Shown: positions 935 through 36,754 of the stretch, one piece after another
Position numbering within the stretch: the stretch's first letter is position 1
Layout: each line of letters begins with the position of its first letter
Source: Escherichia phage P1723
Strand: one strand, 5' to 3'
Sequence record: MT465573
Length of the DNA: 40,282 nt
The notes under the pieces: model-generated
Seen by the model: the letters and a program-made list of their open reading frames with translations, nothing else
Database searches by the model: none
Told to the model about the DNA's origin: nothing
Program-made: the position numbers and the translations under genes

Positions 935-1082
935 AACAAGCAACGTGATGACCGACACTGAAAGGGTCTAGGTGATTCCCTCTGGATGAACCGAATGTTC
1001 TTTAACAATTTGGATATCAACACTCATGAGAACGATAGCGACAATAGCGATTAACTCATGGTCACTGATACTACCGCGAGAC

Positions 1083-1123
1083 GGGCTCAAGATGAGCGTA
1101 CAGTGTGCCATTATGATAATCAC
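1083..1123 (+). promoter_or_regulatory. Putative RNase III processing site (R0.3-like) upstream of gene 0.3
   Basis: GGCTCAAGATGAGCG...GTGTGCCATTATGATAATCACT resembles the CTCAAGG...GCCTTTATGAT motif of T7 RNase III sites; TCTTTAACAAT element just upstream as in T7. Confidence 0.4.
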
Positions 1124-1149
1124 TAGCTAACCAACGAATGGAGAACATC

Positions 1150-1602
1150 ATGATTTACACGAACGAACCAGCTAACAAATTCTATGTACTGGTCTCAGCA
1201 GCTCGAGCTAACCTGTCAGACATCGTGAACATGGGTCGTCAGTTAGACCTTAAGGCGCTCTTACAGGCCGAGCCGGAATACTATGGTGTCCTTGAATGTA
1301 CGGGTCTCACTGGCTGTTATCGTGAAGAGGGGCAGGCTGAAGCGTCCACCGAGCGCACTTACCGTGTACTGTGTGACAACAAGGCGCAAGCTATCAACGT
1401 GGCACGTTTGGCCTGTAATGACTTTGAGCAAGACTGTGTGATGGTCTATAAGTCACAGACTCACACCGCTGGTCTACTGTTCTGCAAGGGTCTGGAGGGG
1501 TACAAGGCGACTCGACTGAATGGCTCCTTCCAGCAAGTGGATGCACCTGAGGGTGAGTGCTACACAATGGATGCTGAAGGTCGTATCTGGGAGGTAATCT
1601 AA
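1150..1602 (+). CDS. 0.3: S-adenosylmethionine lyase (T3-type SAMase, anti-restriction), gene 0.3
   Basis: Translation MIYTNEPANKFYVLVSA...CYREE...KAQAINVARLACNDFEQDCVMVYKSQTHTAGL closely resembles T3 gp0.3 SAMase; GGAGAA RBS before the ATG at 1150 (tool ORF starts at 1138). Confidence 0.88.
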   Translation: MIYTNEPANKFYVLVSAARANLSDIVNMGRQLDLKALLQAEPEYYGVLECTGLTGCYREEGQAEASTERTYRVLCDNKAQAINVARLACNDFEQDCVMVYKSQTHTAGLLFCKGLEGYKATRLNGSFQQVDAPEGECYTMDAEGRIWEVI

Positions 1603-1764
1603 ATGAACAAGCCAACCTACGGTATCTCACAAAGTATCATGGTCATGTATCGCCTCTTGTACCAACTGGGCGACCGCTCACATGATGAAACTATGGCTAA
1701 ACTTAAGGCATGGCATGACGCTAACAAGCGCGATTATGATAAACGTGAGGGGCTATTCAAATGA
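1603..1764 (+). CDS. Small early protein, gene 0.4-like (53 aa)
   Basis: ATG immediately after the 0.3 stop (TAAATG); MNKPTYGISQ...MAKLKAWHDANK has the same residue pattern as T7 gp0.4 as recalled. Confidence 0.45.
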   Translation: MNKPTYGISQSIMVMYRLLYQLGDRSHDETMAKLKAWHDANKRDYDKREGLFK

Positions 1765-1897
1765 AACGCTACGGTATCCACGTTCCGGGCTGGTGTTACT
1801 CAATGACACTTACTGTTAAACTCACAGGTGGTTACTGATAGGATAACGAGAGCGTCACAGGTGGGCGCTCAAAGATAACCTAATGGAGACCTAGCGA

Positions 1898-2095
1898 ATG
1901 ACTATAGCTTTCATCATAGCAGTGTACGCAGCCATTGTGGCTCTCTTTGTGCGAGACTTCCGTAAGGGTCTCATTGTACACAGCGCGAACCTAGCGTACT
2001 TCAAATGGTACGTCCTGCCGCGATTCACTGTACGGGAACCGAATGGGCGCTTTAAGGCCAATAAGGTCGGGATGTTTTACGTAGCAACTCACTAA
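1898..2095 (+). CDS. Hypothetical early protein with N-terminal hydrophobic helix (65 aa)
   Basis: ATG start with GGAGA RBS; N-terminus IAFIIAVYAAIVALFV is TM-like; sits in the 0.5/0.6 position. Confidence 0.5.
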   Translation: MTIAFIIAVYAAIVALFVRDFRKGLIVHSANLAYFKWYVLPRFTVREPNGRFKANKVGMFYVATH

Positions 2096-2116
2096 TTAAT
2101 ATTCTGGAGATACCAA

Positions 2117-2473
2117 ATGACTACCATCAATACTCGCATTATGTACACCGTAGGTTTCCGCATTGCAGCCGTACAGCGTTACCTTGCACTACCGGATGGC
2201 CCTCGCGGGAAGACAGGAACTACAGGTTTGGCTGTTGAGCTTGGCGTGTCCGTCCCGAGCCTCAATAAGTGGGTGACGGATTACCGCAACGGAGTGCTTA
2301 GTCTATCTAATGCCGTGAGCGTAGCCCGTAAGCCTGATAACGTGGTTAATGGTGACACCTATCATGTGTCTGGACGGGACTTCCGCACCAAAGAGGAGGC
2401 TATTCGCTACGCTGTAGAGCTTGCCGGTGGCATCACTGTAACCCGCACAATCCACGAATCTGTAACATTCTAA
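2117..2473 (+). CDS. Hypothetical early protein with helix-turn-helix motif (118 aa)
   Basis: ATG with GGAGA RBS; segment FRIAAVQRY...GTTGLAVELGVSVPSLNKWVTDY resembles the HTH of IS3-family OrfA-type DNA-binding domains. Confidence 0.55.
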   Translation: MTTINTRIMYTVGFRIAAVQRYLALPDGPRGKTGTTGLAVELGVSVPSLNKWVTDYRNGVLSLSNAVSVARKPDNVVNGDTYHVSGRDFRTKEEAIRYAVELAGGITVTRTIHESVTF

Positions 2474-2497
2474 TAGTCAACCTCTGGAGTAACTGAA

Positions 2498-3652
2498 ATG
2501 AACCCAATGAACGCAGCACATCACGTAGTCCCTACCGTGTATCAAGCACTTGAGTACCGAATGAAAGCACTGAAAGCGCTACCTATCGACCGACTCGATG
2601 AACGCCAACCGGGTCTCGTGGGTATTCTTGCTGACCTTGTAAACTACGAGACTGATTGCGGCTGTGGCGTGGACGATACCGAGTTCGTTAACTCACAGGA
2701 CTGGTGGGGTTCGCTGGTGGCGATGGCTCGCGAGCTGGGATATACGTTCCTAGGGAATGGATTCTTCAGTGCAGTATTCAGCCACGTAAGTCTGCCGGGT
2801 CGCGTCATTAAGGTGGGCTTTAAGAAAGAAGACTCAGGCGCTGCGTACGCTGCATTCTGCCGAGCTAATCCGGGTCTACAAGGGCTGCCAGTAATCCATG
2901 CGATTGCACGACATGAGGCCTGTTACACGGTCGTTCTGGACCACCTTAAGCCATACAGCGCAAAGTCACCTGAAGTCCTCGACCAGTACAACATCGTGAA
3001 GACTCAGATTCTGAATCGTGATAATGACGCATGGGACTTCTGCGAGGCATACGATGAGGTCACTCAGGGTCTACAGGGGACCGCAGCGCACATCCGCGAG
3101 TTCTTCTATGGGGTGGCTGGCTTCGACATGCATGAAGGTAACGTGATGCTGGACCATAACGACAACATCGTCATCACTGACCCGGTGAGCTACACAAACG
3201 GTCTCGGTGAGCCGGATGACTTCAGGGTAGACTTTGAGGCGCTACTTGAGGAAATCCAAGCGATGAAACTTGAGGAAGCTATTGAGAAGTGGCAACAACG
3301 TCACCTCCGTAAGTTGAACAAGCTGGAGAACCGAAAGGCACATCGCCGCCATAAGATTCAACTGGCTAAGATTAGAGCCGAGCGTGAAGAACGCCAAGCG
3401 AAAGCCAATATGGTTCGCAAGGATGATGACCGAGCGTGGGAACTGGTGGTAGGAATTAAGCCGGACGCTAAGTACATCTGTGGTCGCGGTGTGAAGTGGG
3501 CAATCCCTGAGGGTCTTAAGATTCACCACAGGAACGGCATCCGGGTCATCCATGAGAAGAACGTGGAGCGCCACAACCGAATGGTAGAGCAAATCAATAT
3601 GGGCAGACCGCTTGATATTGATAAGCGTCTTGACGCAATGTTTATGGGCTGA
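2498..3652 (+). CDS. 0.7: Serine/threonine protein kinase / host shutoff, gene 0.7
   Basis: 384 aa; conserved blocks KALPI..L.ERQ, NGFFSAVFSH, VIKVGFKKEDSGAAY, FDMHEGNVM, ITDPVS match T7 gp0.7. Confidence 0.9.
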   Translation: MNPMNAAHHVVPTVYQALEYRMKALKALPIDRLDERQPGLVGILADLVNYETDCGCGVDDTEFVNSQDWWGSLVAMARELGYTFLGNGFFSAVFSHVSLPGRVIKVGFKKEDSGAAYAAFCRANPGLQGLPVIHAIARHEACYTVVLDHLKPYSAKSPEVLDQYNIVKTQILNRDNDAWDFCEAYDEVTQGLQGTAAHIREFFYGVAGFDMHEGNVMLDHNDNIVITDPVSYTNGLGEPDDFRVDFEALLEEIQAMKLEEAIEKWQQRHLRKLNKLENRKAHRRHKIQLAKIRAEREERQAKANMVRKDDDRAWELVVGIKPDAKYICGRGVKWAIPEGLKIHHRNGIRVIHEKNVERHNRMVEQINMGRPLDIDKRLDAMFMG

Positions 3653-3654
3653 TA

Positions 3655-3705
3655 GTCTACACTTCAAGAGGTCGCCAAGTGGTGGCCTCTGAGAGTGAAG
3701 ATTCT
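3655..3705 (+). promoter_or_regulatory. RNase III site R1-like hairpin between 0.7 and gene 1
   Basis: TGATAGTCTACACTTCAAGAGGTCGCCAAGTGGTGGCCTCTGAGAGTGAAG; same TGATAG + CAAG..GGTC...GGTGGCC architecture as T7 R1. Confidence 0.5.
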
Positions 3706-3723
3706 TAAACAAGCGAGGCAATA

Positions 3724-6372
3724 ATGAGCAACGTAATTAATCCGGCAGTGAATGACTTTTCTGATATCAAACACGCTATCGAACCGTTCAACGTATTGGC
3801 AGACCATTACGGCGAACATCTGGCGGCTGTTCAACTTGAGTTAGAGCACGAGGCATACACGGAAGGTGAGAAGCGTTTCCATAAGCAGTTACAGCGTCAG
3901 ATTGAGGCTGGCGAGTTTGCAGATAACGCAGCGGCTAAAGGTGTAGTTCAAACGTTAATCCCTCGGTTGTCTGCTCGTTTCACCGAGTGGCACGAAGAGA
4001 TGCGCGTGAAGAAAGGACGTAAGCACGTAGCGACAAAGACCACAGCGGCAATCAACGCCGACAACTGTGCGGCAATCGTGGTCAAGCAGACACTGGCACA
4101 GGTAGCCAAGCAGGAACTGGCATCAATGCAGAACGTAGCGTTCGCCATAGGTCGTGCAATCGAAGATGAGTTACGCTTCGGTCGTATCCGTGATGAGGAA
4201 GCCAAGTTCTTTAAGAAGTACGTAGAGGACGGGCTCAACAAGCGCAACGGCTTGCTCTACAAAAAGGCTTACATGCAGGTCGTAGAGAAACAGATGATTG
4301 AGCGCAAAGAGCTTAAATCCACGTGGGAGCACTGGACCACCGAGGAGCTGGAGCATACAGGTATCAAGATGCTTGAATTGCTTATTGAGTCTACAGGTCT
4401 CGTTGAGGTCGAGCGCATGAACGCCGGGAACGTTAAGTCAGACGGTCAGTTTGTCTTCTTGGCTGACGAATGGGTCGAGGCTATCAGTAAACGCGCTGGC
4501 GCACTGGCTGCAATCGCACCAATGTATCAACCTTGTGTAGTCCCTCCGAAACCTTGGACGTCCATCGAAGGTGGCGGCTATTGGGCGGCTGGTCGTAAGC
4601 CGATTCAGTTGATTCGTGTAGGCTCTCGTAAGGCTCTCATGCGCTACAACGATGTGTCTATGCCTGAGGTATATGAAGCGGTCAACATCGCTCAGAATAC
4701 AGCGTGGAAGATTAACACGAAGGTTCTGGCGGTCGTCAATCAGGTGGTCAACTGGAAGAACTGTCCGGTGGAGGATATCCCAGCGCTGGAGAGTAAAGAA
4801 CTCCCGGAGAAACCTGAGGATATCGACACGAACGAAGAGGCTCTCAAGAAGTGGAAGAAAGCTGCTGCCGCTGTGTATCGTCAAGACAAGGCACGTGTGT
4901 CTAAGCGCCTGTCCCTTGAGTTCGCTCTCGGTCAGGCCAATAAGTTTGCACAGTTTAAGGCAATCTGGTTCCCGTACAACCTAGACTGGCGAGGTCGAGT
5001 GTATGCTTGCCCGATGTTTAACCCACAGGGTAACGATATGACCAAAGGGCTCCTGACGTTCGCCACGGGTAAACCAATGGGCGACGATGGGATGTACTGG
5101 CTGAAGATTCATGGCGCTAACTGTGCAGGTGTCGATAAGGTTCCATTCCCTGAGCGCATCGACTTCATTGAGAGTCATCACGCAGACATCATGGCTTGCG
5201 CGGATGAACCTTTAGAGAACCTTTGGTGGGCTGAGCAGGATTCACCGTTCTGTTTCCTAGCGTTTTGCTTCGAGTACGCTGGTGCATTTCGTCACGGTAA
5301 GTCCTACGTGTCCTCGCTGCCTCTGGCGTTCGATGGGTCATGCTCTGGTATTCAGCACTTCTCCGCGATGCTTCGTGATGAGGTTGGTGGTCGTGCGGTT
5401 AACTTACTGCCTAGCGAGAAGGTTCAGGATATCTACCGTATCGTCTCCGACAAGGTTAACATCCGTCTTCAGGCTGACGTAATCGGTGGGACTGATAACG
5501 AGATTGAAGTAATCACAAACAAGACCACTGGTGAGATTACCGAGAAGCCTAAGCTGGGTACTCGCGAGCTGGCTGGTCAGTGGCTGGCCTTTGGGGTCAA
5601 CCGTGGGGTCACTAAACGTTCTGTCATGACGCTGGCGTATGGTTCCAAAGAGTATGGATTCCGTGACCAAGTACTGGAGGACACCATCCGCCCAGCTATT
5701 GACAACGGAAAGGGCCTCATGTTTACCCAGCCGAACCAAGCAGCAGGTTACATGGCGAAACTCATCTGGGAAGCTGTAAGTGTCACTGTGGTCGCAGCCG
5801 TAGATGCCATGAAGTGGCTTCAGAGTGCCGCTAAGCTGTTAGCCGCTGAGGTGAAGGATAAGGATGGGACAATCCTGCGAAACCGCTGTGCTGTACATTG
5901 GGTTACTCCTGACGGGTTCCCTGTGTGGCAGGAATACAAGAAGCCAGTCCAGAAGCGTCTCGACCTGATTTTCCTTGGGAAGATTCGCATGGCCCTGACC
6001 ATTAACACAACCAAAGATAGCGGGATTGATGCACACAAACAGGAGTCAGGGATTGCGCCTAACTTCGTGCACAGCATGGATGGTAGCCACCTTCGTCAGA
6101 CGGTCGTCCACGGTCACAATAAGTATGGCATCAAGTCGTTCGCGCTGATTCACGATAGCTTTGGTGCGGTAGCCGCAGACGCTCGCAACCTGTTTAACGC
6201 AGTGCGTGAGACCCTTGTGGAGACCTATGAGCAGCATGACGTAATCCAAGAGTTCTACGACCAGTTTTACGACCAGTTACACGAAAGCCAGCTTGAGAAG
6301 ATGCCAGCGATTCCAGCTAAAGGGTCTCTGAATCTTCAGGAAATCTTAAAGTCTGACTTTGCGTTCGCCTAA
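3724..6372 (+). CDS. 1: Single-subunit DNA-directed RNA polymerase, gene 1
   Basis: 882 aa, near-colinear with T3/T7 RNAP: PMFNPQGNDMTKGLLT, DGSCSGIQHFSAM, HDSFG, C-terminal FAFA; RBS GAGG. Confidence 0.98.
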   Translation: MSNVINPAVNDFSDIKHAIEPFNVLADHYGEHLAAVQLELEHEAYTEGEKRFHKQLQRQIEAGEFADNAAAKGVVQTLIPRLSARFTEWHEEMRVKKGRKHVATKTTAAINADNCAAIVVKQTLAQVAKQELASMQNVAFAIGRAIEDELRFGRIRDEEAKFFKKYVEDGLNKRNGLLYKKAYMQVVEKQMIERKELKSTWEHWTTEELEHTGIKMLELLIESTGLVEVERMNAGNVKSDGQFVFLADEWVEAISKRAGALAAIAPMYQPCVVPPKPWTSIEGGGYWAAGRKPIQLIRVGSRKALMRYNDVSMPEVYEAVNIAQNTAWKINTKVLAVVNQVVNWKNCPVEDIPALESKELPEKPEDIDTNEEALKKWKKAAAAVYRQDKARVSKRLSLEFALGQANKFAQFKAIWFPYNLDWRGRVYACPMFNPQGNDMTKGLLTFATGKPMGDDGMYWLKIHGANCAGVDKVPFPERIDFIESHHADIMACADEPLENLWWAEQDSPFCFLAFCFEYAGAFRHGKSYVSSLPLAFDGSCSGIQHFSAMLRDEVGGRAVNLLPSEKVQDIYRIVSDKVNIRLQADVIGGTDNEIEVITNKTTGEITEKPKLGTRELAGQWLAFGVNRGVTKRSVMTLAYGSKEYGFRDQVLEDTIRPAIDNGKGLMFTQPNQAAGYMAKLIWEAVSVTVVAAVDAMKWLQSAAKLLAAEVKDKDGTILRNRCAVHWVTPDGFPVWQEYKKPVQKRLDLIFLGKIRMALTINTTKDSGIDAHKQESGIAPNFVHSMDGSHLRQTVVHGHNKYGIKSFALIHDSFGAVAADARNLFNAVRETLVETYEQHDVIQEFYDQFYDQLHESQLEKMPAIPAKGSLNLQEILKSDFAFA

Positions 6373-6416: not shown

Positions 6417-6439
6417 CATTAACCCACACTATAGGGAAC
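6417..6439 (+). promoter_or_regulatory. Phage RNAP promoter (phi1.05-like), ATTAACCCACACTATAGGGAAC
   Basis: Exact match to the -16..+1 core consensus; +1 G at 6434. Confidence 0.7.
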
Positions 6440-6533
6440 CAGATGGCCTCTCGCCTAGATGCGATGCCGGATGGTCCCAATACTTAAAGTTAAACATAAA
6501 GATACTTAAAGTTAACCAACGAGGTTTACAAAC

Positions 6534-6812: not shown

Positions 6813-6815
6813 GCA

Positions 6816-6838
6816 TATTAACCCACACTATAGGGAGA
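6816..6838 (+). promoter_or_regulatory. Phage RNAP promoter (phi1.1-like), ATTAACCCACACTATAGGGAGA
   Basis: Consensus match, +1 G at 6833, directly upstream of gene 1.1. Confidence 0.75.
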
Positions 6839-6877
6839 CAATCCGATCTCCCTTTCGAATACTTTAAGGAATACACT

Positions 6878-8336: not shown

Positions 8337-8380
8337 CTAAAAGGTCTACCTTAACGGGTGGGCCTTTTGTCGTTTCTACA
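8337..8380 (+). terminator. Putative intrinsic terminator after ligase (TE-like)
   Basis: Imperfect GC-rich hairpin AAAAGGTCTACC..GGGTGGGCCTTTT followed by TTTTGTCGTTTCT; position matches T7 early terminator TE. Confidence 0.4.
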
Positions 8381-30523: not shown

Positions 30524-33500
30524 ATGGCTAAATATGACAAAACTATCCCTAACCAATACGATGGACTGATTCGTCAAGCTGCCGATGCCAACGGGGTCTC
30601 TTATGACCTCCTTCGACACTTAACGTTCAATGAGTCCAGCTTTAACGCTAACGCTAAGTCACCTACAGGACCTAAGGGTATCATGCAGATGACTGCTGGT
30701 ACTGGTCGAGCTATGGGACTCAATGTCTTCAAAGAGGACAACCCGGCTGATGACCGTTACAACCCTGAGAAAGCAATCCCGGCTGCTGCTAAGTTGCTTG
30801 CTGGCTTCGTTAAGAAGTCTAATGGCGATGAGCTGCGAGCCGCCCTGATGTATAACGTTGGGGAGGGCCCGACAGGTATGCCACAGATTGAGGCCTACGA
30901 TAAGCAGGACTACGGTAGCATTGGTGATGAGGGTCGCCTGTACATCCGTAAACTGGTAGGTTCCGCTAAGTCCCTGCGCTCAGAAGCCATTGAGAAGTTC
31001 GGTGACTTCGCAAAGGGAATCTTTGAGGTCGAAGCCCCAGCCTCTAAGGTAACTCGTGGGGCTCCCGGTCCAGAGACTGCAAGCGTCAACATGGACACGT
31101 CTAACCTTAAGTATGACCAATTGAACGAACGTACTGCTGCCAATACGTGGGCAGTACAGAACGACCAGCCAGAGGAGAACTATAAGCCTCAGGGAGCTGA
31201 CAAAGGGTTATTCTATAAGACTGGTGACGTGGCTAAGGTTGAGGTACAGAACTCCGCTCTAGCTACGATGGCTGATGCAGCCCTTGGCGACAACGGGTAT
31301 GACGTTTGGTCTGCAACTATTACACCATCCAAGTGGAACAGCTACACGTTCACTCCTGATGATATCCAAAAGATTCGTGAGAGTGGTCTTCGTGCTGAGT
31401 ACGCTCAGTCTGTCCTTGGGTCCAACGCTGAGACTCTCGATGAGATGATTAAGCTGGCTAAGGAACGTCAGGACCGTCAGGACTCTGTAGCCGATGCTGG
31501 TATGGGTGCCCACCTCGTGGGTGCTCTCGCTGGTGCTGCTGTAGACCCTGTGAGCTACATCCCGATTGCTGGTGCTGCTTCCAAGGGTATCTCCCTAGGT
31601 CGTCGTATGGTGACTGTAGGTACTCAAGCTGGTGCTCTGAACGTAGCCTCTGAAGTTTTACGTGTGGGTGTTGGTGGTGGACATGCAGATTACATGATGG
31701 CGGCTGGTGGTGGCTTACTGTTCGGTGCTGGTCTGACTGGTGTGTTACATCGTGCCAACCCTCGTGAAGCTGAGAGCGTCCTTGCGGCAACAGCTCGCGC
31801 TGAGTCTCGTGATGCAGCCATGCGTGGCCTACCGGATAACTCTGCTGTGAGTACCGAGGGTCTGGACTTTAAGACCTCTCCGAATGGCTCTCAATATGCA
31901 ACCCTCGACAGTGGCGAAGTAGTCCTGCCGGATGGTCAAGTGCTGTCAACCAGTAACCCCCTGAACCCCAATAGTGCCTCTCAGTTTGCTTCGGTAGACC
32001 CTGAGGTGACTAAGGGCTCGATGGGTGTACGTATGGGTTCCATGACCGATATCTCCCTGCACCTGTCTCGTTCTGCCGACGATGAAGTCCGTGGTGTTGC
32101 CTATGACCTCCTGCGTTCCACTACAGGTTACGTTAAAGGCGGCTCTGGTAAGTCCGGTACGGTTGCCTCTGACGTGGCTGAGCGTCTGCACTACACCGAT
32201 ACGTCCGACCTAACGGCTATTGAGCAGTTCACACGTGATGCAATCAAAGACCCTGAGTGGACTATGGGTGCTAACCGTGGGGATGCTCTGGCACGTGAGA
32301 CCGTGGTGCGTCGTGCAGTGGAAGCACAGGAAGATGGTATTGGCGTCTCTAAGTTGACCAAGGGTGAATCCAAGCTGCGTGATGAAATCTTCCGGTTCAC
32401 CACCAGCAAGGAAGACGCTATGTCTAACCCTGCGATGTTCGGTAACCCTAAAGCAATCCCTGTGATGAACAAGACGAAACTTAGCGGCAAATACTTCCCG
32501 GTGGCTTATGTACCTGAGAAGGTGGCGGCATTCCGTAATGTCTTTGGGAACTCCGTTGAGGATGCTCAAGGTGCCATGCAGCGCCACTTCTTGGCTGACT
32601 ATGCGTCCAACCCTAACACGAAGTCTGTGGTAGACGAGATGGTAGCCGCTAAGAACGGTCTGGATAGCCCAGCCGCAGTTACACCTGAGATGGTTGAGAA
32701 GTGGGCCAACGACAAGGCTTTCGGTATCGTAAACGGTGAGTTCACTACCAACCTTGCACTGGACGATATCGCCTCTGCGTCCAACTCAATGAACCTCGGG
32801 AAGAATAACTTCCTTGAGAGCCGTCATGGGTTCAGTATGGGATTTAAGTCTCAACTGCCGGATGGTCAGATGTTCTCCCTGAACGACCTGCGTAGCTTTG
32901 ACGCTAACAAGCTGCTGCGTAACTATGCCCGTAGAACCAATGGTGACATTGCGATTCACTCAACGGGTCAGACTACTCAGGACTTACTGGATAAGATTAC
33001 CGCTATCCGTGAGCGAGCCAAGAGTGACCCTTCCGGTAAGCTGAAGCAGGACGCTAACGCCCTCGAAGATACCGTGAAGTTACTCACTGGTCGTGCTCGT
33101 CGTGACCCTAACGGCGCTGTGGACATGGCTATGGGTGTTCTTAAAGACCTGAGCTTTGTCGCTAAGAACGCCTACATGGGTCTTCTGAACCTGACGGAGA
33201 TTGGTGGTATGATTGCCAAGGGTAACGTTCGTGCTCTGTTCCACGGTATTCCTGTTGTTCGTGACATGATGCGTTCCACCAAGGCTGTCTCCGGGACTGA
33301 CCTTCAGAAGCTGGAGTATGGCCTGATGGGTCGTGAAGTGGACAATATGATTCGCCCTCAACGGGCAGACCTCATTCAGTCTCTTCGTGACAACTCTGGT
33401 ATGGGTTCATTCGGTGCAAACGCTCTGGGTTCCCTTAAGTTCGGGACTCAGGAGATTGCCGCTGCGTGGCCTATGAGTAAGCTGCTACAAGGCACCACGA

Positions 33501-34486
33501 ACTACCTGCTTAGCGCTGCACGTCAGGGTCTCATTGGGAACCTTATTGAACACGCTGCGACGGGTAAGTCCTCCAAGTGGCTCAATGAGAACTTCCTGAA
33601 GTCTGCCAGCATCACGCCTGAGCAGTCCAAGGGTATCATTCAGTTCCTCAAAGACCACGCCAAGGTGGACGCTAACGGTAAGTGGACCTTCCCAGACCAA
33701 CACGCGATGAGCCTTGACCCTCGGGCTATGGACTTGTGGCGGATGGCTGATAAGGTTGCAGATGAGACCATGCTCCGACCATCCAAGATTAATGCACAGA
33801 ACGTTAAACAGTTAGGCCCGATTGTTGGCGCTGCGTTGCAGTTCAAAACGTTCGTCATTAAGTCCCTCAATGGTAAGACACTACGTACTTACTATCAGGC
33901 CACTCGCGATGGTCGTGCGATGGACGCTGCATTGTCCACAGGTATCTCCGGGATGCTTGCTGGTTCGTTCTACGTGATGCAGTCCCACATGAAAGCTGCT
34001 GGTCTCCCTGAGAACCAACGTGAGGCTTATCTCTTCAAGGCCTTAACGCCTGAGATGGTTGCCTACGCTGCGGCCTCCCGAAGCTCTATCACTGGTGCGC
34101 CGTTAGGTGTTGCAGATATGCTTCTGGGGCCAATTGGACTGACTCCAAGCCAGTACATGCGTACCACTATCAGTCCTAAGGATGCACCACAGCGAGACCC
34201 TAACAAGGCTTCCTCTGGTCGTTCCGGTACGGCTGAGCTGATGGGTGCTATTGGTCAACAGTTCCCTGTGGCTAACTACGTTGGCTCTACGGTGTCTCTC
34301 GGTCAGAACCTCTGGAACCTCGGAGGTGCCAATGGCCCTCGCGACTCCACGGAGTTCACTACAGGTGTCTATCAGAATATGAAGGAAGTTCTCCCGAACG
34401 ACCCGATTACTCAGAGACTACTTCTGGGTGCTTTCGAAGAGCACATCTACACAACCGAGCGACCTAAGCGTTCAGAGCGCTGGTAA
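30524..34486 (+). CDS. 16: Internal virion protein D with N-terminal lytic transglycosylase domain, gene 16
   Basis: 1320 aa; N-terminus GVSYDLLR...ES.FN..AKS.TGP.G.MQ.T is the transglycosylase motif region of T7 gp16; later segments (FGNPKAI, ILTGRARR, MDLWR.ADKVADE.MLRP) align with T7 gp16. Confidence 0.95.
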   Translation: MAKYDKTIPNQYDGLIRQAADANGVSYDLLRHLTFNESSFNANAKSPTGPKGIMQMTAGTGRAMGLNVFKEDNPADDRYNPEKAIPAAAKLLAGFVKKSNGDELRAALMYNVGEGPTGMPQIEAYDKQDYGSIGDEGRLYIRKLVGSAKSLRSEAIEKFGDFAKGIFEVEAPASKVTRGAPGPETASVNMDTSNLKYDQLNERTAANTWAVQNDQPEENYKPQGADKGLFYKTGDVAKVEVQNSALATMADAALGDNGYDVWSATITPSKWNSYTFTPDDIQKIRESGLRAEYAQSVLGSNAETLDEMIKLAKERQDRQDSVADAGMGAHLVGALAGAAVDPVSYIPIAGAASKGISLGRRMVTVGTQAGALNVASEVLRVGVGGGHADYMMAAGGGLLFGAGLTGVLHRANPREAESVLAATARAESRDAAMRGLPDNSAVSTEGLDFKTSPNGSQYATLDSGEVVLPDGQVLSTSNPLNPNSASQFASVDPEVTKGSMGVRMGSMTDISLHLSRSADDEVRGVAYDLLRSTTGYVKGGSGKSGTVASDVAERLHYTDTSDLTAIEQFTRDAIKDPEWTMGANRGDALARETVVRRAVEAQEDGIGVSKLTKGESKLRDEIFRFTTSKEDAMSNPAMFGNPKAIPVMNKTKLSGKYFPVAYVPEKVAAFRNVFGNSVEDAQGAMQRHFLADYASNPNTKSVVDEMVAAKNGLDSPAAVTPEMVEKWANDKAFGIVNGEFTTNLALDDIASASNSMNLGKNNFLESRHGFSMGFKSQLPDGQMFSLNDLRSFDANKLLRNYARRTNGDIAIHSTGQTTQDLLDKITAIRERAKSDPSGKLKQDANALEDTVKLLTGRARRDPNGAVDMAMGVLKDLSFVAKNAYMGLLNLTEIGGMIAKGNVRALFHGIPVVRDMMRSTKAVSGTDLQKLEYGLMGREVDNMIRPQRADLIQSLRDNSGMGSFGANALGSLKFGTQEIAAAWPMSKLLQGTTNYLLSAARQGLIGNLIEHAATGKSSKWLNENFLKSASITPEQSKGIIQFLKDHAKVDANGKWTFPDQHAMSLDPRAMDLWRMADKVADETMLRPSKINAQNVKQLGPIVGAALQFKTFVIKSLNGKTLRTYYQATRDGRAMDAALSTGISGMLAGSFYVMQSHMKAAGLPENQREAYLFKALTPEMVAYAAASRSSITGAPLGVADMLLGPIGLTPSQYMRTTISPKDAPQRDPNKASSGRSGTAELMGAIGQQFPVANYVGSTVSLGQNLWNLGGANGPRDSTEFTTGVYQNMKEVLPNDPITQRLLLGAFEEHIYTTERPKRSERW

Positions 34487-34487
34487 T

Positions 34488-34510
34488 CATTAACCCACAC
34501 TATAGGGAGA
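34488..34510 (+). promoter_or_regulatory. Phage RNAP promoter (phi17-like), copy 1
   Basis: TCATTAACCCACACTATAGGGAGAGG, +1 at 34505. Confidence 0.8.
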
Positions 34511-34550
34511 GGCAATCACGTCCTCCCTCTAGTTTTCATAAGGAGGCCAC

Positions 34551-34793
34551 ATGGCAAACGTCATTAAGACAGTTTATACGTACCCATTAGATGGCACCAC
34601 GACTGACTTTGCGATTCCCTTTGAGTACCTGTCACGTAAGTTCGTGGTGGTAACGCTCATTGGTCAAGACCGTAAAGAGCTGGTTGTTGTGACCGATTAT
34701 CGCTTCGCTACCCGCAACCTTATCTCTACGACTAAGGCATGGGGACCAGCCGATAACTATCAACAGATTGAGCTACACAACCGAGCGACCTAA
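34551..34793 (+). CDS. Truncated duplicate of the tail fiber N-terminus (gp17 residues 1-74 plus 6 aa), created by the tandem duplication
   Basis: Identical to the first 74 codons of gene 17, then runs through the duplication junction into LHNRAT and a TAA; has its own promoter and AAGGAGG RBS. Confidence 0.6.
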   Translation: MANVIKTVYTYPLDGTTTDFAIPFEYLSRKFVVVTLIGQDRKELVVVTDYRFATRNLISTTKAWGPADNYQQIELHNRAT

Positions 34794-34813
34794 GCGTTCA
34801 GAGCGCTGGTAAT

Positions 34814-34836
34814 CATTAACCCACACTATAGGGAGA
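34814..34836 (+). promoter_or_regulatory. Phage RNAP promoter (phi17-like), copy 2
   Basis: Identical to copy 1; +1 at 34831. Confidence 0.8.
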
Positions 34837-34876
34837 GGCAATCACGTCCTCCCTCTAGTTTTCATAAGGAGGCCAC

Positions 34877-36754
34877 ATGGCAAACGTCATTAAGACAGTT
34901 TATACGTACCCATTAGATGGCACCACGACTGACTTTGCGATTCCCTTTGAGTACCTGTCACGTAAGTTCGTGGTGGTAACGCTCATTGGTCAAGACCGTA
35001 AAGAGCTGGTTGTTGTGACCGATTATCGCTTCGCTACCCGCAACCTTATCTCTACGACTAAGGCATGGGGACCAGCCGATAACTATCAACAGATTGAGAT
35101 TCGTCGATACACTTCTGCAAGTGAACGTCTGGTTGACTTCAGTGATGGTTCCATCCTGCGAGCTACCGACCTTAACGTATCTCAGATTCAGACCCTGCAC
35201 GTTGCTGAAGAAGCGCGAGACCTGACCGCTGATACCATTGGCGTTAACAACGATGGCAACCTTGATGGTCGTGGTCGTCGTATCGTTAACGTGGCAGATG
35301 GTGTGGACGCTGGTGACGTTGTTACCGTAGGCCAGATGAACCGTTGGTCTGGTAGTGCTGCCGACAGCGCCAATAAAGCCAAGGTGTCCGAGACCAACGC
35401 CAAGACCTCTGAGACAAACTCAAAGGCTTCCGAGCTGTTAGCCCAGAAGTGGGCTGAGAACCCTAAAGGAACACCTGTGGTCTCCAGTCAGTATTCCGCT
35501 AAGCATTGGGCGTTGACCTCTGAGGATAGCGCTAATGCGTCTGCAACCTCTGCGGGTAACTCTCAGGCACAAGTAGCGAACGCTAAGACACAGGCTGACC
35601 GTGCTGGTGGTTACGCCAATGACGCTATGGGTTACCGCGATGCAGCCAACACGTCTGCTCAACAGGCCGCTGTATCTGAGGGCAACGCTGCGACATCTGC
35701 AAGTAACGCAAAGACTGAATCCGATAAGCTAATTCAGTTTAACACTCTGGTTGACCGGATTAACGGAGTGGCTGTACGTCAGGTTGGTGAGTTTGAGGTC
35801 CACAACTCTCGTACTTACGCTAAGCCGGGTACAGTGTATGGGGATGGTCAACTGCTGAACCGCAACCAGTTCCCTGCACTAGTAGCTGAGTTACTGGCAG
35901 GACACCTCCCGGTTGTCTCTGACTCCGAATGGCTGGCTGACCCCGGTAAACGTGGTTGCTATACCCTAGGTAACGGTACGACCACTTTCCGTGTACCAGA
36001 CCTCAACGGTGTCTATGCGGGTTCCATTAAGGCTCCTGTGTTCCGTGGTGACGCTGGGTTTACTGTAGGTGATGTTCAGAAGTCAGCTCTACCAAACATT
36101 GAGGGTCTGATTGCACTTGCCGATAATGAGCTGGCCTCCAGTGCCTCTGGTGCATTCTACAACGCTGGGCGCTCCAACAAAGGTGCAACTAACGATACCG
36201 GCGGTGCTCAGTTAGGTTTCGACGCGTCACTGTGGAACGAAATCTACAAGAAGGACACCAACGAAGCCCGAATGAACTCCGTGGTAATCGTATGGGTCAT
36301 CCGTACTCACGGGGTGGTGAACAATCCGGGTTCTGTAGATGCCGCTGTGTTGTCTTCTCGTGTCGAGCAGGTTTATACCGAACTGCTTACACGTATGGTT
36401 GCTAATGAGAACCTCCAGAAGTCTGGACAGAAGTTCCTTCGCCGAGTGTTTAGCGACCGCACGTCTCAGGGGCAACTTTCGACTGGAAGAACAGTGACTT
36501 GCTCTGAGGATATTCTCAACAAGATGCTAGTAATTGGCGCACACACCGATAGCCAAAACCCAAACTCTCAGATATATCGTTGTAGCCCGTTCCTCCAGCC
36601 GAACACTGCTGACCGAATGCACCTCACTCTATCTAACTGGTCGTACACCTTAGAGTTCCCTGCGGCGAATCAAGTTAAACTAGTAGCGGCTACAGGTTCT
36701 GGAGTACAGGCAATCAACTATATTGACGTAGTGTGCGACTACCCACAAACGTAA
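34877..36754 (+). CDS. 17: Tail fiber protein, gene 17 (T7-like N-terminal domain, divergent distal region)
   Basis: 625 aa; residues 1-150 (MANVIKTV..FEYL.RKFVVVTLIG.DRK...DYRFATR...KAWGPAD, GSILRA.DLNV.QIQT.HVAEEARDLT.DTIGVNNDG.LD.RGRRIVN) match T7 gp17; distal part differs and contains a tail-collar-like motif. Confidence 0.95.
   Translation: MANVIKTVYTYPLDGTTTDFAIPFEYLSRKFVVVTLIGQDRKELVVVTDYRFATRNLISTTKAWGPADNYQQIEIRRYTSASERLVDFSDGSILRATDLNVSQIQTLHVAEEARDLTADTIGVNNDGNLDGRGRRIVNVADGVDAGDVVTVGQMNRWSGSAADSANKAKVSETNAKTSETNSKASELLAQKWAENPKGTPVVSSQYSAKHWALTSEDSANASATSAGNSQAQVANAKTQADRAGGYANDAMGYRDAANTSAQQAAVSEGNAATSASNAKTESDKLIQFNTLVDRINGVAVRQVGEFEVHNSRTYAKPGTVYGDGQLLNRNQFPALVAELLAGHLPVVSDSEWLADPGKRGCYTLGNGTTTFRVPDLNGVYAGSIKAPVFRGDAGFTVGDVQKSALPNIEGLIALADNELASSASGAFYNAGRSNKGATNDTGGAQLGFDASLWNEIYKKDTNEARMNSVVIVWVIRTHGVVNNPGSVDAAVLSSRVEQVYTELLTRMVANENLQKSGQKFLRRVFSDRTSQGQLSTGRTVTCSEDILNKMLVIGAHTDSQNPNSQIYRCSPFLQPNTADRMHLTLSNWSYTLEFPAANQVKLVAATGSGVQAINYIDVVCDYPQT

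Follow-up and report, generated by a model that had tools for sequence, protein, structure and literature searches.

Anti-restriction and host shut-off functions have turned up repeatedly in the early region of T7-like phages, as illustrated by Ocr, the SAM lyase, gp0.4 and gp0.7. Aca proteins, which carry a different (XRE-like) class of helix-turn-helix (HTH), bind their operators as dimers, and AcrIIA1 is a precedent for the fusion of an HTH to an inhibitor. The 118-residue early protein of Escherichia phage P1723 described here contains an HTH of a known kind; its pairing with a highly conserved orphan module at the C-terminus, in the putative early operon of lytic T7-like phages, is uncharacterised. 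For the HTH half the closest known proteins are IS3 OrfA and IS66 TnpA (PF01527), with Cgl2762 (2jn6) and IS629 OrfA (2rn7) as solved structures. The phage protein differs from these in having no leucine zipper, OrfB/DDE partner, frameshift site or terminal inverted repeats, in belonging to the early operon of a phage that is strictly lytic, and in carrying an unrelated β-rich C-terminal domain. The N-terminal domain of CENP-B and the DNA-binding domain of Brinker, both transposase-derived eukaryotic HTHs, are alike in fold and superfamily only (13–18% identity), and their biology is unrelated. Aca and AcrIIA1-type systems resemble the phage locus in that a strong early promoter drives an HTH module together with anti-defence genes (PMC9410906), and they follow the same two-domain logic of regulator plus effector. 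T7 Gp5.7 offers a functional analogy only (PMC5569994), being a 7-kDa winged HTH from a class II gene that has no counterpart of the C-terminal domain; no sequence relationship to Gp5.7 was detected, as no T7 record is found among the tblastn matches described below.

The DNA we analysed, hereafter the window, is the whole 40,282 nt stretch of Escherichia phage P1723 (MT465573). An earlier note, drawn up from the letters alone, had proposed an early HTH protein lying between a SAM lyase upstream and a kinase downstream; both neighbours are recovered in Pfam and PHROGs matches, and both of the peptides it quoted are located in the 118-aa ORF (FRIAAVQRY at residues 14–22 and LAVELGVSVPSLNKWVTDY at residues 38–56). 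The early block contains the following features:

530, 737 and 899 (span 530–930), plus strand: TTGACA boxes of three putative sigma-70-type early promoters, with GTAACTTAGA common to all, recognised as a repeat family and from the sequence
1138–1602, upstream of the 118-aa gene: SAM lyase (Pfam S-AdoMet_lyase, E=5.7e-40)
between the SAM lyase and the 118-aa gene: two small ORFs (phrog_5058 and phrog_2385)
2106–2109, plus strand: Shine-Dalgarno GGAG, 7 nt before the ATG of the 118-aa ORF, read from the sequence
2117–2473, plus strand: coding sequence of the early protein (ORF list; ATG start, 118 aa, stop codon included)
2163–2276, plus strand, and 2303–2455, minus strand: small ORFs overlapping the 118-aa gene in the mechanical ORF listing
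2498–3652, next gene downstream: gp0.7-type kinase (phrog_2828, E=2e-100)
3724–6372, after the kinase: T7-type RNA polymerase gene
8338–8369, plus strand: terminator-like hairpin, a 14-bp stem followed by a T-rich tail

Escherichia phage SRT7 (Foetvirus, Studiervirinae) shares 97.5% identity with the window over positions 1000–4000; in SRT7 the same gene is annotated as gp43 (‘hypothetical protein’) and encodes a product 99% identical to the 118-aa protein. This annotation, the presence of homologues in 23 phage records and a dN/dS below 1 in both halves show the ORF to be a real gene, more than a chance reading frame, and in GC content it does not differ from the genes around it. The SRT7 RefSeq record (NC_048002.1) contains questionable names for two other early genes, the SAM lyase being labelled ‘SAM-dependent methyltransferase’ and the T7-type RNA polymerase ‘N4-like RNA polymerase’, with a second, nested RNAP CDS. 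Nothing was found in the window with Rfam.

The sites at 530, 737 and 899 were not called as promoters by a simple consensus scan, and we liken them to T7 A1–A3, which would make them the early promoters of this phage. The consensus of the phage RNA polymerase promoter, ATTAACCCACACTATAGGGAGA, is present in 13 copies, including those at 300–338, 6417–6443 and 6814–6852 and ten more. The left-end copy at 300–338 is degenerate (CTATAAGGAGCC) and lies upstream of the three sigma-70-type promoters, while no consensus phage promoter is found between the early promoters and the 118-aa gene, the next copy being at 6417. With sigma-70-type promoters upstream and no intervening phage promoter, it is therefore likely that the gene forms part of the early (class I) operon and is transcribed by the host RNA polymerase. 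The hairpin at 8338–8369 probably ends this operon, as the equivalent of T7 TE.

A further copy of a phage promoter arises from a 326-bp tandem duplication at 34447–35098 of the window, within which 300 nt at 34447–34746 and 34773–35072 are 100% identical. Included in the duplication are the end of a 1320-aa ORF (30524–34486), whose SRT7 equivalent is named ‘internal virion protein with endolysin domain’, together with a phage promoter and the beginning of the tail-fibre gene; an extra 80-aa ORF (34551–34793) and the additional promoter are the outcome. In SRT7 the region is present once and measures 1275 bp, compared to 1601 bp in the window; the repeat may be genuine or may have been introduced during assembly.

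The 23 records with homologues were identified by tblastn of 50,697 phage records (E≤0.01). None is a T7 or T3 record, in agreement with the earlier suggestion that T7 has no counterpart, and the same search detected no homology to the T7/T3 early products gp0.4, 0.5, 0.6 and 0.65, or to any other known T3 early protein. Database searches grouped the family into 16 clusters at 90% identity, mostly on ∼40-kb contigs, HMMER run in full over 1.84 billion representative proteins returned 52 with E≤1e-3, tandem-HTH forms among them, and a scan of IMG/VR gave no more than 5 loci, four of which agree in length with phage genomes already in the set. Long proteins matched in the representative scan are repeat proteins and were rejected as homologues. 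Members of the family are carried by Foetvirus, Kayfunavirus, Przondovirus and Pectobacterium phages as well as metagenomic T7-like contigs, and are always encoded in the block that runs from the early promoters at the left end to the RNA polymerase gene, at a position that varies within it. In every phage examined, a SAM lyase or Ocr shares the early block or operon with the homologue.

Named members of the family, with 44–99% identity, are SRT7 gp43, SH3 gp4, SFPH2 ‘Transposase’ (A0A345AV87) and VLCpiA3d A3d_00001, all uncharacterised and labelled as hypothetical or, misleadingly, as transposase. The latter name is given by UniProt to two phage proteins in our fold search, those of SFPH2 and of Pectobacterium phage Phoria, and is likewise misleading. 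The 118-aa protein itself is unmatched in PHROGs and NCBIfam, its relatives matching only generic ‘transposase’ or HTH phrogs. Literature searches on SRT7, T7-like phages, Kayfunavirus early genes and phage HTH_Tnp_1 found neither a characterisation of the family nor experimental data on it.

The protein has two domains, an N-terminal HTH and a more conserved C-terminal orphan module, joined by a linker:

2138–2296, plus strand: HTH_Tnp_1-like three-helix HTH domain, residues ∼8–60 (helices 12–23, 35–42 and 46–57; net charge +4)
2297–2335, plus strand: linker motif LSLSNAVSVARKP, residues 61–73 (near-invariant or invariant columns in alignment A1)
2351–2470, plus strand: orphan C-terminal domain, residues ∼79–118 (β-hairpin 82–89, helix 92–102 and a GGITVT... 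tail)

The N-terminal half is a transposase-type HTH of homeodomain-like fold, similar to those of IS3 OrfA and IS66 TnpA. The earlier note had read an HTH_Tnp_1-type domain from sequence patterns; the assignment holds through family profiles and structure only. Alone, the 118-aa protein scores 14.8 bits against Pfam HTH_Tnp_1 (PF01527; E=0.033), below the gathering threshold of 24.1 bits. Across the family the profiles do detect the HTH: HTH_Tnp_1 is matched by 23 of the 30 aligned members (best E=3.5e-10), HTH_23 by 16/30 and HTH_28 by 13/30, and the homologue from Pectobacterium phage JJY1 exceeds the gathering scores of HTH_23, HTH_Tnp_1 (32.6 bits) and HTH_28. As its own score is sub-threshold but its relatives pass, the protein’s membership of HTH_Tnp_1 follows by transitive homology. 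When searched against solved structures, the family profile matches Cgl2762 (2jn6), which we take to be an HTH_Tnp_1-type protein, with E=7.5e-5, and the Brinker DNA-binding domain with E=3.4e-3.

An AlphaFold model built from the 30-sequence alignment has a mean pLDDT of 71.5, rising to ∼85 over the three N-terminal helices, and its three-helix homeodomain-like fold matches that of solved HTH_Tnp_1 members. When an initial model was compared with the PDB by Foldseek, no match reached significance and only local resemblances to homeodomains emerged. Nearly all members of the family have W52 in the recognition helix, and the N-terminal domain is basic in HTH-carrying members (+3 to +10) despite only 19–36% identity. 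Some relatives contain two HTHs in tandem, as in bipartite DNA-binding domains. Fold, basic charge and these tandem-HTH relatives together suggest that the HTH does bind DNA.

The linker that follows has the family consensus G-x-L-S-L-x-N-A-I-A-V-S-R-K-P and is also carried by distant relatives with other C-terminal domains; in one relative (P0020) the match to the IS66 TnpA model extends to residue 76 and so includes the motif. Confidence in the model is low over linker residues 67–78, between the HTH and the C-terminal domain. The same HTH and an ‘LSNAIAVS’ linker are joined to unrelated C-terminal domains on three podophage-like contigs (L008:4638–5042, L009:2839–3192 and L010:2663–3016), which have no T7-type RNAP among the called genes of the fetched stretch; a DUF7267 gene adjoins the HTH-linker gene in the first two.

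The C-terminal module was missed in the earlier reading of the protein, whose suggestion of a regulatory or anti-defence role stays hypothetical. The hairpin and helix of this module are modelled with moderate confidence (pLDDT 76–80), and Y82, F89, G104 and G105 are invariant among 14 diverse homologues (alignment A2). Invariant columns of the family alignment cluster in residues 59–108, reading G-x-L-S-L-S-N-A-x-x-V-x-R-x-P and then G-D-x-Y-H-x-x-G-x-D-F-x-x-K-x-E-A-x-R-Y-A-V-E-L-A-G-G-x-T-V. Searched alone against Pfam (E≤10), the domain gave sub-threshold matches only, to DUF2188 (E=0.023), SPOR (E=0.094), DUF6894 and NDUS4. We assign it no fold from these matches, DUF2188 and SPOR having only the hairpin and an ‘F-x-T-K-E-E-A’ helix motif in common with it, and the structure searches likewise gave no fold match for this domain. 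Among 1.84 billion representative proteins no homologue of the C-terminal domain was found outside this phage family.

Both halves of the protein are under purifying selection. Between lineages the C-terminal domain retains 53–84% identity, as against 19–36% in the N-terminal domain, and comparison of SH3 with pO2, which represent Kayfunavirus subtypes (dS about 1.1–1.3 in both halves), gives an omega of ∼0.6 for the N-terminal domain and ∼0.10 for the C-terminal domain. Within a subtype, omega is 0.05–0.15 for the C-terminal domain and 0.2–0.4 for the N-terminal domain, with one pair at 0.9 and one at 1.5.

T7-like phages readily undergo deletions in this region, and three independent natural deletions have removed the HTH while leaving the linker motif and C-terminal domain in frame:

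Cronobacter phage Dev2 gp0.2 (L002:759–1076): the first 46 aa of the SAM lyase followed by ELAMENAIAVSR...
Escherichia phage IMEP24 ‘Ocr’ (L003:1275–1835): the Ocr domain (Pfam E=1.6e-31) followed by DAIAVSR...
Metagenomic contig L021, 1231–1500: 22 N-terminal aa from a small ORF, with the join inside helix 3 at a common ‘KR’

The deletion junctions lie at microhomologies. In Dev2 ∼877 bp are absent compared to phage GW1, with a junction overlap of 8 nt, and in IMEP24 ∼528 bp are absent compared to phage pO2, with an overlap of 10 nt. Records label the fusions ‘SAM-dependent methyltransferase’ and ‘DNA mimic ocr’. No out-of-frame remnant of the C-terminal module is found among the 23 tblastn records, and the neutral probability of all three events being in frame is ∼0.04, a result that is suggestive, not conclusive, of the module being useful without the HTH. 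From these natural variants it follows that the phages can do without DNA binding by the protein, at least under the conditions of their isolation. As the C-terminal domain is the more conserved half and persists in nature without the HTH, the HTH is probably not the main functional part, and the pattern of conservation together with the fusions points to the C-terminal domain as the principal functional surface.

We tentatively favour a role for the protein as an early DNA-binding regulatory or host-takeover factor, with the C-terminal domain as an effector or interaction module. The early (class I) gene would be transcribed by the host RNA polymerase to give a small two-domain product, the basic HTH of residues ∼8–60 most likely binding double-stranded DNA through helix 3. 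Residues ∼61–118 would form the effector module, providing a self-association surface or, more likely, binding a conserved partner, so that the DNA-bound protein would most likely act soon after infection as regulator or host-takeover factor. In one version of this model it would occlude promoters, in the manner of the IS-encoded InsA/OrfA repressors or T7 Gp5.7; in the other it would tether or sequester a host factor on DNA.

The sole candidate operator for the HTH, which we regard as a lead only, is a perfect 11-bp inverted repeat (CTACGCTAAGT at 877–887 and ACTTAGCGTAG at 911–921, within 869–929) that flanks the -35 TTGACA (899–904) of the third early promoter. The repeat occurs nowhere else in the genome and is shared with SRT7, and in read-through transcripts it folds as a stable RNA hairpin (-27.6 kcal/mol, z = -4.7). 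No equivalent inverted repeat was found in other phages that carry the gene, and the nine phages compared have no common element near their early promoters. The repeat could act as an operator, or else at the RNA level in processing or stability.

An unlikely though credible alternative is bifunctional anti-defence of the AcrIIA1 type, in which the C-terminal domain inhibits a host immunity protein and the HTH acts as an autorepressor in the Aca manner, damping the strong early promoters of an anti-defence operon. The constant sharing of an early operon with a SAM lyase or Ocr would be expected of such a protein, as would the high conservation of an effector-like C-terminal domain beside an HTH that diverges between lineages, and the in-frame survival of that domain after loss of the HTH, in one case as a direct fusion to an intact Ocr domain. 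The inverted repeat around the third -35 element could serve as its operator, but the lack of an equivalent in other gene-carrying phages and the stable RNA hairpin that it forms weaken this point. While HTH repressors are widely found alongside anti-CRISPR genes (PMC9410906), neither the 118-aa protein nor its relatives resemble known anti-defence proteins in Pfam, PHROGs and NCBIfam scans, and such high conservation of an inhibitor domain is atypical of an arms race.

It is quite unlikely that the C-terminal ∼55 residues are a new self-sufficient effector binding a conserved host protein, of immunity or housekeeping function for example, to which the rapidly diverging HTH is attached as a detachable regulatory or targeting module, giving T7-like phages a regulator joined to an inhibitor, as in AcrIIA1, within their anti-defence operon. 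If true, this would explain why the C-terminal module is retained in frame after loss of the HTH, even as a fusion to Ocr.

We consider it improbable that the protein is a takeover factor that binds protein and not DNA, its HTH-like bundle being an interaction surface (for example a mimic of sigma-70 region 4 on the host RNA polymerase) and its C-terminal domain engaging the same complex. The Pfam HTH clan includes both sigma-70 region 4 and HTH_Tnp_1; one relative matches Sigma70_r4_2 weakly (E=3.5e-4), and the helix 3 positions predicted to contact DNA vary strongly between lineages. The host RNA polymerase is, moreover, an established and common target of T7-like early and middle proteins (gp0.7, Gp2 and Gp5.7; PMC5569994). 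Against this, the best structural and sequence matches of the N-terminal domain are true DNA-binding domains, the domain is consistently basic wherever the HTH is present, and the tandem-HTH relatives resemble bipartite DNA binders.

It is scarcely credible that the gene comes from the OrfA or TnpA gene of an insertion sequence and persists as a decaying or domesticated fragment without function for the phage. Its HTH is indeed of the IS3/IS66 accessory-protein type, and UniProt’s ‘Transposase’ names invite such a reading. As the earlier note had it, no transposase catalytic domain accompanies the HTH, Pfam and PHROGs scans showing no DDE family in the three upstream ORFs or the kinase, and IS-like inverted repeats are absent, positions 1600–3000 containing none but short, chance-level inverted pairs. 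No OrfB/DDE partner is reached downstream by a -1 frameshift, the next gene being the kinase, and no heptad pattern of Leu residues indicative of a leucine zipper or coiled-coil follows the HTH in residues 61–118, which are modelled instead as a short helix, a β-hairpin, one 11-residue helix and an unassigned tail. The IS-remnant reading was rejected on the purifying selection acting on both domains, on flanks without repeats and on a composition like that of the neighbouring genes, and the conservation of the early-region gene across several Studiervirinae genera also speaks against it. The reading that the ORF is not a gene was rejected on its dN/dS.

The early region of several Studiervirinae genera thus contains a conserved, uncharacterised and partly mis-annotated (‘transposase’) family. 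Correcting the ‘transposase’ labels has a practical side, in that they could wrongly flag therapeutic phages as carriers of mobile elements. If the HTH binds early promoters, the protein would be an early-acting feedback regulator that is absent from T7 itself, and if the C-terminal domain binds a host protein, it would represent a new small host-takeover or anti-defence module.
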